Shown here: positions 17,952 to 57,288 of the stretch, piece after piece
Numbering within the stretch: position 1 is the stretch's first letter
How the letters are laid out: each line of letters begins with the position of its first letter
Assembly (NCBI RefSeq): GCF_041886205.1
Contig: NZ_CP169029.1
DNA from: Escherichia coli
GTDB taxonomy: Bacteria > Pseudomonadota > Gammaproteobacteria > Enterobacterales > Enterobacteriaceae
Length of the DNA stretch: 64,000 nucleotides
Reading direction: 5' to 3' (one strand)
Position numbers and translations under genes: made by a program
The notes under the pieces: generated by a model
What the model was told of the DNA's origin: nothing
The model's database searches: none
Seen by the model: the letters and a program-made list of their open reading frames with translations, nothing else

Positions 17952-18902
17952 TCAGCCTGCGATAGCACCAACAACCTGTAATACTTCGTCACGCGCCTGT
18001 TCTGGTTTTTCACTGTCAAGCCAGTGAACCCCTTCCCAACCACGCAGCCAGGTTATCTGCCGCTTCGCCAACTGTCTCGTGGCGCAAATACCTCGATAAA
18101 CCATTTCATCGTATGAGATTTCGCCTTCAAGGTAAGACCACATCTGGCGATAACCCACGCAACGAATGGAAGGCAAGTCCGTATGCAAATCTCCTCGGGC
18201 AAAAAGCGCCCGGACTTCTGCTTCAAAACCTGAAGCCAACATCTGATGAAAACGCTGCTCAATGCGTTGATGGAGCAGTTCACGGCTCGCCGGGGCGATG
18301 GCGAACTGATGCACCTGATACGGTAGAGCGTCTCCTGACGTTTGCGTCAGTTCCGTTAAAGTTTTACCCGAAATGAAAAAAACTTCCAGTGCCCGGGAAA
18401 GCCTTTGTGGATCATTTGGATGAATCCTTGCTGCCGCAACCGGATCGATCTCCTGAAGTTGACGATGCAATGACTCCCAACCTTGCTCTGCCGCCTGTTG
18501 CTCAATTCTGGCCCGTACTTCCGGGTCTGCCGACGGTAGCGGCGACAACCCTTCCAGCAATGCCTTGAAATACAACATCGTACCGCCCACTAACAGTGGG
18601 ATCCGCCCCGCCGCGGTGATATCGGCCATTTCCGCCAGCGCATCGCGGCGAAAATCAGCAGCCGAGTAAGCCTGCGACGGATCGCGAATATCCAGCAATC
18701 GGTGCGGCGCGGCGAGTAACTCTTCAGCGTTCGGCTTCGCCGTCCCGATATCCATCCCTTTGTAAATAAGGGCAGAATCAACGCTTATCAACTCTACTGG
18801 TAAAATTTTACGCAGCTCAATGGCTAACGCCGTTTTACCGGAGGCCGTCGGCCCCATCAAAAAAATCGCCTTAGGCAGGCTCGCCTTACTGATATCACTC
18901 AT
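17952..18902 (-). CDS. miaA: tRNA dimethylallyltransferase MiaA
   Basis: 316 aa ORF with P-loop GPTASGKT. Confidence 0.95.
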
Positions 18903-20742
18903 CTTTCAGGGCTTTTATCGCCGGATGTAAATCAACAGATTGTAACAGACCACCCGGCGGCGTTTTCACAAGTTGCGGACATAACCGTTCCACGTCCGCC
19001 AGCAGGGTTATGGCCTGTGCCATTGACCACTGCGCATGTTCGCTCATCAGATTTCGTGCAATCCACTGCGCAATATTGCCAGGTTCGAATACGGACTGCT
19101 TCGCCAGGTAGCCTATCAGTTCAGGAATCAAGATTTGTAAATTTTGTTGGCGTAAGGGTAAAGGCACGGCCCTGATGGTCACATGCTGCGCATCGGACTG
19201 AAATTCAATACCCAATTCCGCCAGGGCAGACTGCGCTTTTTCTAATGCCGATTTTTCTTCGCCAGAAACTTTTAGCCGCAACGGAATCAGCAACGGCTGG
19301 GCGCAAACGGGCGCTTCACCCGGCGTCAATTGTGCCTGACGCAGCCAACGTTCTGCCACTGGCAAGGCTAAAAGTGAAATGTTGCCGTCGCGCTCCAGCA
19401 ACGCACAGTCGGAATGGACGATAGTCAGTACCCGACCAAAACTCTGACTGTTCGCCGCAAGTGCAGGTTCCTGCGGTTCTGGCGCTTTTGGTTTTTGCAT
19501 CGGCGCGGGCGTTTGCAAAAGCTGGCGATACACTTCACCTTGCTGTTTCTGGTAACCTGGCTGCGCATTCGGCCAGGGGGCAGCCGGACGACTGCCTGAT
19601 GCTGGCGCAGGAGTGTAGCGCGGAGCTACTGGCTCACAAACTGCCGGTTCAGCAAAGTGATTGCGCCCCGCCGCCACGCGGTTTTCCGGAATGGTACGCG
19701 GTGCAGGTTGTGGTTCATCGTCCAGCGGTAGCGGCGTTTCCAGTTGCTGTTGTAGCACGCTCAGCACGCCCTGATAGATAAAGTCATGCACCAGACGCGA
19801 CTGATGGAAACGCACTTCGTGTTTGGCGGGGTGTACGTTGACGTCCACCTGATGCGGGTCGATCTCCAGATACAACACAAACGCCGGTTGTTGATCGGCC
19901 CCCAGTTTGTCTTCACAGGCCTGGCGGATCGCATGATTGATCAGGCGATCGCGCATCATGCGACCATTCACGTAGCAATACTGAATTTCTGCCAGGGCGG
20001 GCGTGGTGTGATTCGGATCGGCCACCCAGCCGCGCAGCGTGAGATCGCCGTGTTGCCATTCAATCGCCAGCGCTTGTTCGAGAAAAGCGGTGCCACAAAT
20101 CGCGCCTAAGCGCCGTTCTTTTTGCCCGCCTTCCGGCACCGCGCGGTACTGGCGTACGATTTTGCCGTTATGCGACAGGTTGATCGTGACGTCGAAACGC
20201 GCCAGTGCGATGCGGCGGATGATTTCATCGATATGGTTAAATTCGGTTTTCTCGGTGCGCAGGAATTTGCGCCGCGCCGGGGTGTTGTAGAACAGGTCCA
20301 GTACCTCCAGCGTCGTTCCCACCGGATGCGCCGCCGGTTTAACCGTCACGTCCATATCGCGCCCTTCGGCATAGGCCTGCCAGGCTTCCTGCTGTTCTGC
20401 GGTGCGTGAAGTGAGCGTCAGGCGGGAAACCGAACTGATACTCGCCAGCGCCTCACCGCGAAAGCCCAGGCTGATAATGGCTTCGAGATCGTCCAGAGAG
20501 GCGATTTTACTGGTGGCATGACGAGCCAGCGCCAGCGCCAGCTCATCTTTTTTGATACCGCAGCCGTTATCACGAATGCGGATAAGTTTCGCCCCACCGC
20601 GTTCGATATCAATATCGATACGCGTCGCACCTGCATCGAGGCTGTTTTCCACCAGTTCTTTGACTACCGACGCAGGTCGCTCGACCACCTCACCTGCGGC
20701 AATCTGGTTCGCCAGTTGTGGCGGTAAGACCTGAATTGGCAT
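18895..20742 (-). CDS. mutL: DNA mismatch repair protein MutL
   Basis: Track ORF 616 aa trimmed by one codon to [23 protein letters not shown] (615 aa). Confidence 0.95.
20525..20542 (-). repeat. three tandem GCTGGC hexanucleotide units inside mutL (codons LALALA)
   Basis: Plus strand reads gccagcgccagcgccagc; positioned at MutL codons 69-74 by track arithmetic. Confidence 0.8.
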
Positions 20743-20751
20743 CAATCGTCC

Positions 20752-22089
20752 TTAGTTTGGCAGCGTGCGATCTGGCGTCGTCACCGTACTGGCCGTTTGT
20801 GCCGTTGCCCCCTGCGGCGCAGATTGCATCGGATGCGCAAGGAAATAATTGCGCAGGCCTTTGTAAATGGCTTCTGCCAGCTGTTGTTGGTAATCGTCGC
20901 TCGCCAGCAAACGTTCTTCGCTGTTGTTGCTGATAAAACCGGTTTCGACCAGTACTGATGGGATATCCGGCGAACGCAGAACGCCAAGGCTGGCATGTTC
21001 TGGCCGACGTTTATGTATTTCGCCAATGCGTTGCAACTGACTGATCATACTGGTCGCTACATCATACCCTACCCGCTGGGAATGACCGAACTGTAAATCC
21101 AGCACCGCCTGGCTTAAATAGGGGTCAGACTGACTGTTCGCCAGCACATCACCCGCCCCGCCCAGCAGCTCCGACTGTTTCTCGTGCTGCTCCAGCCAGC
21201 TGGCCATTTCGCTGTTGGCGCGACGGTTAGAGAGCACCCATACAGAAGCGCCAGTCGCACTGCGGTTCGGTGCGGCATCAGCGTGAATCGACACGAGGAA
21301 ATTGGCGTTTTGCTTACGTGCCACATCGCTGCGCCCCATCACCGAGATAAAGTAATCACCGTCACGGGTTAAAACGCCCTTAAACATCGGATCGTCATTG
21401 AGCAAAGTACGCAATTTACGCGCGATGGCGATGGTGACATTTTTCTCCCGCGTACCGCCGGGGCCGATAGCGCCAGGGTCCTGACCGCCGTGTCCGGCAT
21501 CAATAGCGATGATAATTTTATCGCCAGTGTTAGCCGTCGCGCGCGCAGCCGGTCGCGTTACCGTATTACTGCTGATAACACCCGTAGTGCGGTTACTTTC
21601 CGTTTTAAACGGATTGCGCGCCGGTTCGCTGACGCGCGGTGCGACAACCGTAGGCGTTTCAACGCGTTTCGCAACCACAGGCGGCGGAGGAGGCGGTGGC
21701 GGCGCATCGGCGTTAATCGTAAAGACGACAGTGTAATTGCTGCCATTCTGCCGCTTCACCGCTTCGGTTTTACCATTTTCGGTAAGATCGACCACCAGCC
21801 GTAGCGTTTGTGCATCTTTAGGCGTTCCGGAGCGAATCGCCTTCACCAGATTATTACCGCTGAACAACAACGGCAGTCCCTGAATCACGCCCGTTTGTTT
21901 GATATCGAGCGCCACGGTGCGTTTGCTTTGATGGCTAAACGCATAATCAGGATCGCCAATAAAACTCAACGTTATCCGCGCCTGTTGATTACCGTTAGAA
22001 ACCTGAATATCAGAGAGCGTCGCGGCACCCACCTGCGCGCACAGCAGCAGCAACGTCGCTACCAACCAATTTCTGATGCGATACATCAT
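20752..22089 (-). CDS. amiB: N-acetylmuramoyl-L-alanine amidase AmiB
   Basis: Track ORF trimmed to [10 protein letters not shown] start (445 aa); contains an 8-proline run. Confidence 0.9.
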
Positions 22090-25226: not shown

Positions 25227-25495
25227 TTCATCCACAGCTTGTGAATAAAAATAAAAACGCATTGCAATTCAAGACGAATAAAATCGTCAAGTGATCGACT
25301 CGACAAAACGGAATCTTAATTTTTAACTTATCTATCAATAGGTTAAAAAAATACTATTCACCGTGCGAAGTTTCTTTGAAATTAAGATTACAGCCTGAGG
25401 CTGTGGATAACTCTGTTTACAAGAGTTTGTCAGAGACAACAAAAACCAGCAATAACGCATCGCGTCGCTGTGGATATTTTATTGAGAGAAGAATT

Positions 25496-25571
<76 letters not shown>

Positions 25572-25606
25572 TTGGGTGGTCTGTGCCTTACAGCACTTTC
25601 AAATTT

Positions 25607-25682
<76 letters not shown>

Positions 25683-25718
25683 TTGGGTGGTCTGTGCTTT
25701 GTAGCACTTTTCAAATTT

Positions 25719-25794
<76 letters not shown>

Positions 25795-32107: not shown

Positions 32108-32257
32108 TGCATGAAGCTGCCAAATGATGTCAACGTGGCTCATTTAGCAGCTTAACATCATCTTCAGTTATCACCGGCCCTGGAGAGTATCATCCATACG
32201 CATTACTTCCAGACAACTCATCGCCGGAGAGACGATGAGTTGCAGGATTTCATATGA

Positions 32258-33760
32258 TCAGTCGAGAGCTAACTCAGGTTTGTTCGCCATGCGACTGCAA
32301 TAGTTCTGGTAAATCGCCATCGCTAACAGCGAGAAGAAGACAGGGCCGCCAATCATCCACAATGTGCTGTCCCAGTCTCCGGCTTCAACCACAGGTTGAA
32401 TGATGGTGAAGACGTTCGCAAATGTCACCACCAGTACGACAACCACTGTTGCGATCATTGCCGACATACGCGTTTTGAAAATCACAAACGGTCTGTCGAG
32501 ATCCTGACGTGCTTTAAAGAATGGGAAAGCCAGCGCGAGGAACAGGTAAGGAAGCGTCATAGACACGTTCGCCATCAGCGTCAGTTTGTTAAAGAACGCC
32601 GATGCGGTGCCACCGCCAAACGAAACCAGCAGGATGAAGACAGTAACCAACCCGCACTGCATCCACATGGCGATAGAAGGCATACCCATCGTATTCAGGC
32701 GCGTCATCGGTTCCGGCCACAATGCTTTCGGCGTTCCCTGGATGATGGCTTTCAGCGGTGAATAGCAAAGCGTAAAGAACGCACCGGTATAAGCGAGGAA
32801 CATCGAAAGCCCGGTAATACGCGCAAACCATACGCCCAGCGACAATGACGCTTCTGGTGACAAATGCAGTGCGTTACCCAGCGTCACCCCGAGGCTCTTC
32901 ATCAGCACATAGGTAATATTGCCGAGGTTAACGGAACCATTACTTAATACCTGCTGCCAGTTTGTGCTGACGCCCCATAAAAATATTGCCAGCGAATAAC
33001 CGATTGAAATAACAATAGCGGCAAAAACAATACCTTTGGCAAAGTTCTTTTCTGGATTTTCCGTTTTATCGACCAGACCACCAACCGCTTCAATTCCGCC
33101 ATAGGCAAAAATGGCAAATACCACAAACGATAGCATTGCCAGACCGGACTGATAACCTGGGTTCGGTGATGCAAGGAAATTAATATCCTGCGCGAAATGC
33201 CCACCATTTAATAACAAAATAGTAATGCTTACTAACAGCAATACTAAGTTCAGACACATTACTGCAATACCGCCCACCGCAGTAATGCGGGCAATTTTAT
33301 TAATCCCCTTTGAAGCAACGACGGTGACCAGAATCATCCATGCCACTGCCAGCAGACCAACCACCTGCGTAGGCTCCAGTCCGGCAATACGCCAGTGCTG
33401 GGTCATGTCGCTACCATAGAGGAATGTTGAGAACGGTACCCAAACTTTCGCGGAGGTGCTCACCATCCAGATGATATAAGAGGAAAACCACATAAACGTA
33501 CCAATGAAGGCAAAACGTGGTCCGACACTATTATTCATCCAGGAATAGATACCACCTTCTTCTTTGCGATAAGCAGCTCCCATTTCAGCCATCATTAAGG
33601 CGAATGGAATAAAGAATAACAATGCAGAAAATATATAAAAGGGAATCGCACTATAACCCATTAAGTAATAAGCCGATGGGCTATTGGCAAATCCAAATAC
33701 GGAAGTAAAGATCATCAATATGAGTCCTATCAGACTCATCTTTTTTATCGTGTGAGGCAT
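32258..33760 (-). CDS. yjeM: APC-family amino acid/polyamine transporter YjeM
   Basis: Track ORF 514 aa trimmed to MPHTIKKMSL start (500 aa). Confidence 0.85.
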   Translation of the reverse strand: MPHTIKKMSLIGLILMIFTSVFGFANSPSAYYLMGYSAIPFYIFSALLFFIPFALMMAEMGAAYRKEEGGIYSWMNNSVGPRFAFIGTFMWFSSYIIWMVSTSAKVWVPFSTFLYGSDMTQHWRIAGLEPTQVVGLLAVAWMILVTVVASKGINKIARITAVGGIAVMCLNLVLLLVSITILLLNGGHFAQDINFLASPNPGYQSGLAMLSFVVFAIFAYGGIEAVGGLVDKTENPEKNFAKGIVFAAIVISIGYSLAIFLWGVSTNWQQVLSNGSVNLGNITYVLMKSLGVTLGNALHLSPEASLSLGVWFARITGLSMFLAYTGAFFTLCYSPLKAIIQGTPKALWPEPMTRLNTMGMPSIAMWMQCGLVTVFILLVSFGGGTASAFFNKLTLMANVSMTLPYLFLALAFPFFKARQDLDRPFVIFKTRMSAMIATVVVVLVVTFANVFTIIQPVVEAGDWDSTLWMIGGPVFFSLLAMAIYQNYCSRMANKPELALD

Positions 33761-55044: not shown

Positions 55045-55241
55045 AATTCATATCAACGGACCTCCACGGAGGTCCGTTTTTCGTTTCAGAACGCCACAAT
55101 TTAAGCGTTCTACCTACAAATCAATTCTACCGAACTCAACCAGATTCCCCCCACATCAACCCCATTGTGTGGGTATAATTGCGGGCATACCCCAGTTCGA
55201 CAGAATTTGTACCCTCTTTAACGCATTCAGAAGGCTATACT

Positions 55242-56504
55242 ATGGCACTGACTGACGCAAAAATCCGGGCTGCAAAGCCCACTGACAAGGCTTATAAACT
55301 CACTGACGGGGCTGGCATGTTCCTACTGGTTCATCCTAATGGTTCCCGTTACTGGCGTCTCCGTTATCGTATTCTGGGTAAGGAGAAGACTCTGGCACTT
55401 GGTGTGTATCCAGAAGTTTCTCTCTCCGAAGCTCGTACAAAACGGGATGAGGCCCGAAAACTGATTTCGGAGGGGATTGACCCTTGCGAACTGAAAAGAG
55501 CTAAAAAAGTAGTCCCTGATTTACAACTCTCTTTTGAACATATTGCACGACGCTGGCATGCCAGTAATAAACAATGGGCACAATCACACAGCGATAAAGT
55601 ACTCAAAAGCCTCGAGACACACGTTTTCCCCTTTATCGGCAACCGGGATATCACAACACTCAGTACCCCGGACCTGCTTATCCCTGTTCGTGCTGCAGAA
55701 GCTAAACAAATTTATGAAATCGCCAGTCGTCTGCAGCAAAGAATATCTGCTGTAATGCGTTATGCCGTACAGTCTGGCATCATCAGATATAACCCGGCTC
55801 TGGATATGGCTGGTGCATTGACCACGGTAAAACGCCAGCATCGCCCTGCACTGGATCTTTCACGCCTGCCTGAACTTCTGTCGCGTATTGACGGTTATAA
55901 AGGCCAGCCTGTCACCCGACTGGCAGTTATGCTGAATTTACTGGTTTTTATTCGTTCCAGTGAACTCAGATACGCCCGCTGGTCTGAAATTGATATTGAC
56001 AATGCCATGTGGACTATTCCAGCCGAACGCGAACCTCTGCCTGGCGTAAAATTCTCACACCGGGGCTCCAAGATGCGAACACCACATCTTGTGCCACTCA
56101 GCAAACAGGCTGTAGCCATACTGGCAGAACTACAGACATGGGCTGGTGAAAATGGTCTGATCTTTACGGGAGCACATGACCCGCGTAAACCAATCAGTGA
56201 AAATACTGTAAATAAAGCCCTGAGGGTGATGGGGTATGACACAACCCAGGATGTCTGTGGCCATGGATTCCGGGCGATGGCGTGCAGTGCATTGATTGAA
56301 TCAGGTTTGTGGTCCCGCGATGCTGTGGAACGTCAGATGAGCCATCAGGAGCGTAATGGTGTACGTGCTGCGTATATCCATAAAGCAGAACATCTGGAAG
56401 AACGGCGACTGATGTTGCAATGGTGGGCCGATTTTCTGGATGCGAACCGGGAGAAGGGTATCAGTCCGTTTGAATATGCAAAAATTAACAATCCATTAAA
56501 ATAG
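55242..56504 (+). CDS. P4-type tyrosine integrase (tRNA-associated genomic-island integrase)
   Basis: 420 aa ORF starting MALTDAKIRAAKP, 198 nt downstream of tRNA-Phe; C-terminal catalytic region with HGFRAMACS (H-x-x-R) and nucleophile Tyr in RAAYIHK; appears full length. Confidence 0.85.
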   Translation: MALTDAKIRAAKPTDKAYKLTDGAGMFLLVHPNGSRYWRLRYRILGKEKTLALGVYPEVSLSEARTKRDEARKLISEGIDPCELKRAKKVVPDLQLSFEHIARRWHASNKQWAQSHSDKVLKSLETHVFPFIGNRDITTLSTPDLLIPVRAAEAKQIYEIASRLQQRISAVMRYAVQSGIIRYNPALDMAGALTTVKRQHRPALDLSRLPELLSRIDGYKGQPVTRLAVMLNLLVFIRSSELRYARWSEIDIDNAMWTIPAEREPLPGVKFSHRGSKMRTPHLVPLSKQAVAILAELQTWAGENGLIFTGAHDPRKPISENTVNKALRVMGYDTTQDVCGHGFRAMACSALIESGLWSRDAVERQMSHQERNGVRAAYIHKAEHLEERRLMLQWWADFLDANREKGISPFEYAKINNPLK

Positions 56505-56590: not shown

Positions 56591-56866
56591 GTGGCTTCTG
56601 TTTCTATCAGCTGTCCCTCCTGTTCAGCTACTGACGGGGTGGTACGTAACGGCAAAAGCACCGCCGGACATCAGCGCTATCTCTGCTCTCACTGCCGTAA
56701 AACATGGCAACTGCAGTTCACTTACACCGCTTCTCAACCCGGTACGCACCAGAAAATCATTGATATGGCCATGAATGGCGTTGGATGCCGGGCAACTGCC
56801 CGCATTATGGGCGTTGGCCTCAACACGATTTTACGTCACTTAAAAAACTCAGGCCGCAGTCGGTAA
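56591..56866 (+). CDS. insA: IS1 protein InsA
   Basis: 91 aa [43 protein letters not shown]. Confidence 0.95.
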
Positions 56867-57288
56867 CCTCGCGCATACAGCCGGGCAGTGACGTCATCGT
56901 CTGCGCGGAAATGGACGAACAGTGGGGCTATGTCGGGGCTAAATCGCGCCAGCGCTGGCTGTTTTACGCGTATGACAGGCTCCGGAAGACGGTTGTTGCG
57001 CACGTATTCGGTGAACGCACTATGGCGACGCTGGAGCGTCTTCTGGGCCTGCTGTCGGCCTTTGAGGTCGTGGTATGGATGACGGATGGCTGGCCGCTTT
57101 ATGAATCACGCCTGAAGGGAGAACTGCACGTTATCAGCAAGCGATATACGCAGCGCATTGAGCGGCATAACCTGAATCTGAGGCAGCATCTGGCAAGGCT
57201 GGGCAGGAAGTCACTGTCGTTCTCAAAATCGGTGGAGCTGCATGACAAAGTTATCGGGCATTATCTGAACATAAAACACTATCAATAA
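56785..57288 (+). CDS. insB: IS1 InsB frame (expressed as InsAB' transposase by -1 frameshift)
   Basis: 167 aa ORF overlapping insA in the -1 frame, ending ...[19 protein letters not shown]. Confidence 0.9.

Follow-up and report, generated by a model that had tools for sequence, protein, structure and literature searches.

A tandem hexanucleotide repeat within mutL, coding for the peptide LALALA, has been described as a source of mutators in Salmonella and E. coli. The 6bpΔmutL allele of Salmonella Typhimurium LT7 (Gong et al. 2007; Chen et al. 2010, PMC2955026) carries two copies of the unit and confers a mutator phenotype, whereas three copies are wild type, and slipped-strand mispairing was proposed as the underlying mechanism. 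Chen et al. observed conversion between two and three copies in both directions in LT7 culture, as well as a lower population mutability with synonymous 'locked' repeat alleles. In non-mutator Salmonella, they recorded zero conversions among more than 10,000 colonies, so that the forward rate is low. According to the same paper, only Salmonella, Escherichia and Shigella possess the exact repeat, and Shaver & Sniegowski (2003), as cited there, found the same mutL site in evolving E. coli B. Working with K-12 lines, Wei et al. (2022, PMC9376063) obtained two independent 6-bp deletions, converting LALALA into LALA, which made the lines hypermutators within about 100 generations; Pillon et al. (2013), in the wording of that citing paper, showed that the gain or removal of one LA impairs ATP binding. 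Finally, Desroches et al. (2018, PMC5793043) identified Escherich's original strain, NCTC86, as a mutator harbouring MutL L68_A69del.

The classical contingency loci of Haemophilus, Neisseria and Campylobacter resemble this system in that a short tandem repeat located in a coding region toggles a phenotype through reversible slippage. However, these loci possess many more units and operate by frameshift on/off, whereas the mutL repeat consists of three units, gains or loses them in frame and displays no sign of special maintenance. Classical contingency loci switch at high rates, far above that of the mutL repeat in non-mutator Salmonella.

Here, we focus on the mutL repeat present in a 64,000-nucleotide stretch of E. 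coli DNA, hereafter the window. In all probability, this feature is the known (GCTGGC)3/LALALA slippage hotspot of E. coli mutL, in its wild-type three-copy form, at which slippage generates reversible mutators and whose origin is incidental. The finding as such is already known, namely, a textbook-level hotspot in its ordinary state. With regard to LT7, the repeat is identical, occupies the same nucleotides of the gene (201-218) and codes for the same LALALA peptide, but the species is another one, and the two-copy allele and its reversion were observed in LT7, whereas the window holds only the three-copy form. NCTC86 shares the E. coli site, and its two-unit allele was recovered in our census of genomes; it represents the off state, together with mutT and other repair defects probably acquired in culture collections (PMC5793043), whereas the window is in the on state. 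The mutators from the long-term evolution of E. coli B (Shaver & Sniegowski 2003, as relayed by PMC2955026 and PMC5793043) have in common with the window the gene, the site and the 6-bp unit, with three units as wild type and two or four as mutator. They differ from it by a GCG codon for Ala73, which makes the tract 1-2 nt longer, whereas the window has GCT, a tract of exactly 18 nt and the wild-type copy number. One of the long-term lines is said to have carried four copies and another one two, each allele raising the mutation rate on its own.

The mutL gene of the window

The mutL coding sequence, recognised from its open reading frame, Pfam domains and identity with K-12, extends over 18895..20742 on the minus strand, the stop codon at the low end included, and specifies 615 residues from an ATG at 20742. 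The mechanically predicted ORF starts one codon earlier than this annotated ATG, at TTG 20745; the RefSeq mutL CDS of K-12 (1,848 nt, 615-aa protein) has the same ATG start as that used here. Pfam assigns HATPase_c_3 to residues 24-120, DNA_mis_repair (PF01119) to residues 214-330 and MutL_C (PF08676) to residues 440-564, so that a single 615-aa chain combines the ATPase, the DNA_mis_repair transducer and the MutL_C dimerisation domains. In the PDB, the first 349 residues find the E. coli MutL chains 1bkn, 1b62, 1b63 and 7p8v with an E-value of about 1e-234, 7p8v being full-length MutL. Across 71 MutL sequences, the residues of GHKL motifs I-III (E29, N33, D58, G60, G62 and G93-G96) do not vary, and the window protein has all of them. 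Further, the gene order amiB-mutL-miaA-hfq is found, with amiB upstream and miaA, hfq and hflX downstream, in a region collinear with K-12 MG1655 at 98.9% identity. These features identify the gene as E. coli mutL and place the repeat inside its N-terminal GHKL ATPase domain, in agreement with the original prediction.

The window and K-12 MutL proteins share 607 of 615 residues without any gap. The eight differences (N131D, S350T, A368V, R369C, L418P, S459A, A494G and D513E) fall mostly in the linker, as do R369C and L418P, and N131D is the sole one in the ATPase domain. The frame is intact, as had been claimed, and this, together with the identity to K-12, makes it reasonable to regard the three-unit allele as presumably functional; given the eight substitutions, R369C and L418P among them, full function is an assumption. 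The allele is rare: among the 5,425 complete E. coli genomes, just four match its CDS at 99% identity or more, the remainder reaching 98.8% at most. These four genomes come from a bear, a cow, a frog and a human; the best match, at 100% identity, is strain wlxctx60, whose host was a Japanese black bear.

Several other features of the window were noticed in passing. On the minus strand, at about 21630-21660, the neighbouring AmiB has nine consecutive prolines. Three tandem tRNA-Gly genes at 25494-25794, as in K-12, appear as internal repeats in the comparison of K-12 with the window. At 32108-32294, about 187 bp stand in place of about 740 bp of K-12 carrying yjeO and yjeN, with flanks on both sides collinear with K-12 at about 99% identity. 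The genome of wlxctx60 diverges from the window beyond position 55158. The segment 54969-57355 contains a P4-type integrase ORF (55179-56504) just after the tRNA-Phe gene pheU, followed by an IS1 transposase ORF (56785-57288), directly after which come adiY, adiC, eptA, basR, basS and proP. We take the K-12 genes between pheU and adiY to be cadCBA, dtpC, lysU, dcuSR, dcuB, fumB, melRAB and adiA; they appear to be missing from the window, as if by an IS1-bounded deletion. None of the complete E. coli genomes in the collection spans the IS1-adiY junction, the best matches ending at the IS1 end.

The repeat and its structural setting

The plus strand at 20525-20542 reads GCCAGCGCCAGCGCCAGC, i.e., (GCCAGC)x3, whose reverse complement, GCTGGCGCTGGCGCTGGC, is (GCTGGC)x3 on the minus strand coding for MutL. 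Tandem Repeats Finder reports the same interval with a period of 6, 3.0 copies, 100% matches and a score of 36, so the three perfect tandem units announced at this place are exact. The tract measures exactly 18 nt, the bases flanking both ends breaking the period, and it is the sole perfect period-6 repeat with at least three copies within the 64-kb window, where a mean of 0.005 such repeats is expected by chance (200 dinucleotide-preserving shuffles). Given LALALA and the codon usage of the gene, the probability of a perfect 18-nt tract is roughly 2-4% in E. coli-like genes.

The minus-strand frame over the repeat, GAT GAG CTG GCG CTG GCG CTG GCT CGT, translates as DELALALAR. Counted from the annotated ATG, LALALA corresponds to Leu68-Ala73 and the repeat to nt 201-218 of mutL, in agreement with the position given for S. 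Typhimurium LT2 (PMC2955026, Table 2) and with the E. coli numbering of L68_A69del (PMC5793043). The original prediction had the peptide right but numbered its codons 69-74, because the mechanical ORF begins at TTG 20745. Two third-codon positions vary among genomes: that of Ala69 (20536, minus strand), a G here, which in 574 complete E. coli genomes is an A (GCA) breaking the repeat, and that of Ala73 (20524, minus strand), a T here (GCT) and a G in many E. coli according to our alignment and to PMC2955026. An AAAAAA run encoding Lys64-Lys65 (20548..20553, minus strand; mutL nt 190-195) is located 5 nt upstream of the repeat and is listed as the second possible slippage site of mutL (PMC2955026, Table 2).

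The structural setting was examined with an AlphaFold2 model of MutL residues 1-349, built on 71 MutL sequences (mean pLDDT 81.5). Motif II of the GHKL family (DxGxG), the D58-N-G-C-G62 segment encoded at 20557..20571 on the minus strand, has its D58, G60 and G62 invariant in the alignment and is directly followed by a predicted alpha-helix spanning residues 65-73 (KDELALALA; 20524..20550, minus strand), the last two turns of which are encoded by the repeat. A flexible ATP-lid segment, RHATSKI...GFR (codons 74-95; 20458..20523, minus strand), recognised from pLDDT and alignment, begins where the repeat ends. Within it, the model has a low-confidence stretch at 75-94, with pLDDT below 50 at 75-80 and 85-94; this stretch includes RHATSKI and leads to GFRGEAL, both motifs being invariant across the 71 aligned sequences.

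Drawing on the literature and on this model, the following sequence of events can be proposed. Since the 6-nt unit is present three times in direct succession, slipped-strand mispairing at replication, a step described in published work, may occasionally delete or duplicate one copy. The change being in frame, minus or plus one Leu-Ala, the protein would still be made. We infer that helix 65-73, shortened or lengthened by two residues at its end, would mis-set the ATP lid, as such a modification should shift the point where the lid leaves the predicted helix. ATP binding would then fail, in line with the published binding defect, and with it mismatch repair would be lost, giving the strong mutator phenotype known from the literature. 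Slippage could likewise restore three copies, so that the defect would be reversible, as has been reported.

Copy number and haplotypes in E. coli genomes

The repeat length was surveyed in 5,426 complete RefSeq E. coli genomes, with the window flanks placed around two or four units as queries. The mutL locus was present in 5,425 of them; the segment had no match at all in the remaining genome, and two matches were on records labelled plasmids. A three-unit length was found in 5,417 of the 5,425 genomes, K-12 MG1655 included, two units in seven records and four units in one. The original prediction, which had assumed three units to be the functional state and had proposed a comparison of isolates, agrees with these counts; reference wild types with a different number were looked for, and K-12 and the 5,417 genomes all have the three-unit length. 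Three copies are the population norm and the wild-type state in E. coli.

The two-unit records comprise three assemblies labelled NCTC86 or NCTC_86, strain B-2207, whose MutL protein is the same as that of NCTC86, LT601384, the urine isolate W137 and the faecal isolate 377323_2f. LT601384 is presumably another NCTC86 assembly. The four-unit record belongs to an isolate named ST648, from a pleural effusion in Beijing (NZ_CP008697.1, 534590-535293), and codes for a 617-aa MutL. On the basis of its sequence, this isolate is a candidate natural mutator, and no description of its allele was found in the literature searched. All two- and four-unit genes are annotated as an intact 'DNA mismatch repair endonuclease MutL' of 613 or 617 residues, so the annotation does not reveal the defect.

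These records bear on the view that the tract is a chance coding repeat, neither more mutable nor more important than the neighbouring sequence. CTG and GCG are indeed the commonest Leu and Ala codons in the genes of the loci listed in our cross-species scan, described below, and dipeptide repeats generally favour identical codons, both of which speak for it. However, the alignment of the two- and four-unit alleles revealed a clean loss or gain of whole units, the eight records differing from the norm by exactly one, and no other length variants were seen in the 92-104-nt mutL stretch among the 5,425 genomes. Moreover, such alleles have arisen independently in experiments, and their mutator phenotype is documented (PMC9376063, PMC5793043). 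We therefore give this view almost no credence, and the predicted status of the site as a mutator hotspot through one unit more or less, in E. coli as in Salmonella, is borne out by published work (PMC2955026, PMC9376063, PMC5793043).

With exact 30-mer queries, a haplotype could be assigned to 5,373 of the genomes with three units (5,417 in all). A perfect repeat preceded by GAT for Asp66 occurs in 2,941 genomes, with the four-unit ST648 genome counted in, and a perfect repeat preceded by GAC in 1,859, which puts the share of complete E. coli genomes with the perfect three-unit repeat at 88% or more; GAT followed by the interrupted form GCTGGCACTGGCGCTGGC is found in 574, and about 44 genomes carry other haplotypes. 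Ala73 is encoded by GCT in 2,640 genomes, as it is in the window; the other aligned alleles have GCG, with which the tract grows to 19-20 nt and can be read as (CTGGCG)x3, as in E. coli B. The interruption results from a synonymous GCG to GCA change at Ala69, which in about 10.6% of the 5,425 genomes leaves 13 nt of perfect tract instead of 18-20 nt. The five carriers sampled all share MutL WP_001296676.1, one of their genomes being labelled O25b:H4-ST131, and the GCA-interrupted form looks like one heavily sequenced lineage. We tentatively suggest, holding it slightly less probable than its opposite, that Ala69 GCA represents a natural 'locked-on' allele. If so, this lineage would throw off ±6-bp mutL mutators at a measurably lower rate, as do the engineered locked alleles (Chen et al. 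2010).

Incidental hotspot or maintained switch

Chen et al. (2010) regard the repeat as an evolved and selectively maintained switch, i.e., a contingency locus for mutability kept by second-order selection. The conversion in both directions in LT7 and the lowered population mutability after synonymous locking (PMC2955026) fit with this idea, as do the prevalence of the perfect repeat in complete E. coli genomes and the recurrence of mutator alleles at this site in independent lineages. Set against it are the absence of switching among the >10,000 colonies of non-mutator Salmonella examined in the same study, the off state in only 8 of 5,425 E. coli records, the 574 genomes in which the repeat is interrupted (one MutL allele in the five carriers sampled), and the nature of the change at mutL, an in-frame indel and not a frameshift on/off.

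The question was further addressed across species by scanning GTDB representatives, a single genome for each species, for any DNA that encodes one 12-residue peptide, which yielded at least 120 loci in Gamma- and Betaproteobacteria; the 120 loci listed form an arbitrary sample of species, without Salmonella. A perfect period-6 tract of at least 18 nt was present in 28 of these 120 loci, compared with 3.8 expected from the codon usage of each gene (about 7x), an excess in favour of a maintained switch. Among the matches listed, it stays at 5-7x after a crude clustering of related sequences, by single linkage on third-position identity, which stands short of a proper phylogenetic correction and was usable at the 0.65 and 0.70 thresholds only, since at 0.55-0.60 the shared GC3 chained most sequences together. 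On the other hand, 92 of the 120 species among the matches listed retain the peptide but encode it by something other than a perfect three-unit repeat.

The excess was compared with that at LALA/ALAL control sites in the long ORFs of the same listed loci, where perfect 12-nt repeats occur at 19 of 63 sites versus 6.6 expected (2.9x). Expressed per tetrapeptide window, the mutL site reaches 3.06x over the codon-usage expectation among the matches listed, so the excess is not specific to mutL, in a comparison that is coarse, with 63 sites, and falls short of a full phylogenetic test. The 7x excess over codon usage was accordingly rejected as a sign of selection, the control sites (63, a coarse set) being equally biased. 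The identical-codon bias in Leu-Ala repeats is general, and it could stem from a preference for the CTGGCG codon pair or from an origin of such repeats by slippage. Repeat perfection beyond codon usage and this general bias, as would characterise a contingency locus, was not found at mutL. As the controls show an equal bias per step, there is no evidence that the mutL repeat is kept for its mutability, and we consider a selectively maintained switch improbable. Given the similar values at control sites and at mutL, as well as the common interrupted MutL allele, the repeat most likely arose incidentally, LALALA being coded for with the favoured codons CTG and GCG.

The same scan extends the distribution of the repeat. 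Among the 28 perfect-tract loci listed, eight come from taxa outside the Enterobacteriaceae, namely, Noviherbaspirillum, Sulfuricella, Edwardsiella, Pantoea, Acerihabitans, and metagenome-assembled genomes of Burkholderiaceae, Chromatiales and a Lake Baikal gammaproteobacterium. Their tracts are of the (CTGGCG)x3 type, 18-20 nt long, and located at the same MutL site, so the repeat has a broader distribution than Chen et al. state ('only Escherichia, Shigella and Salmonella').

The survey of E. coli genomes and the control sites of the cross-species scan make a small contribution to the debate over an evolved switch, in favour of an incidental hotspot. The value of the site is that of a marker more than of a discovery: counting the units of the 18-nt tract is a rapid way to recognise, from sequence alone, a likely mismatch-repair mutator among E. 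coli, Shigella and Salmonella genomes, and the window reads three copies, with repair presumably on.
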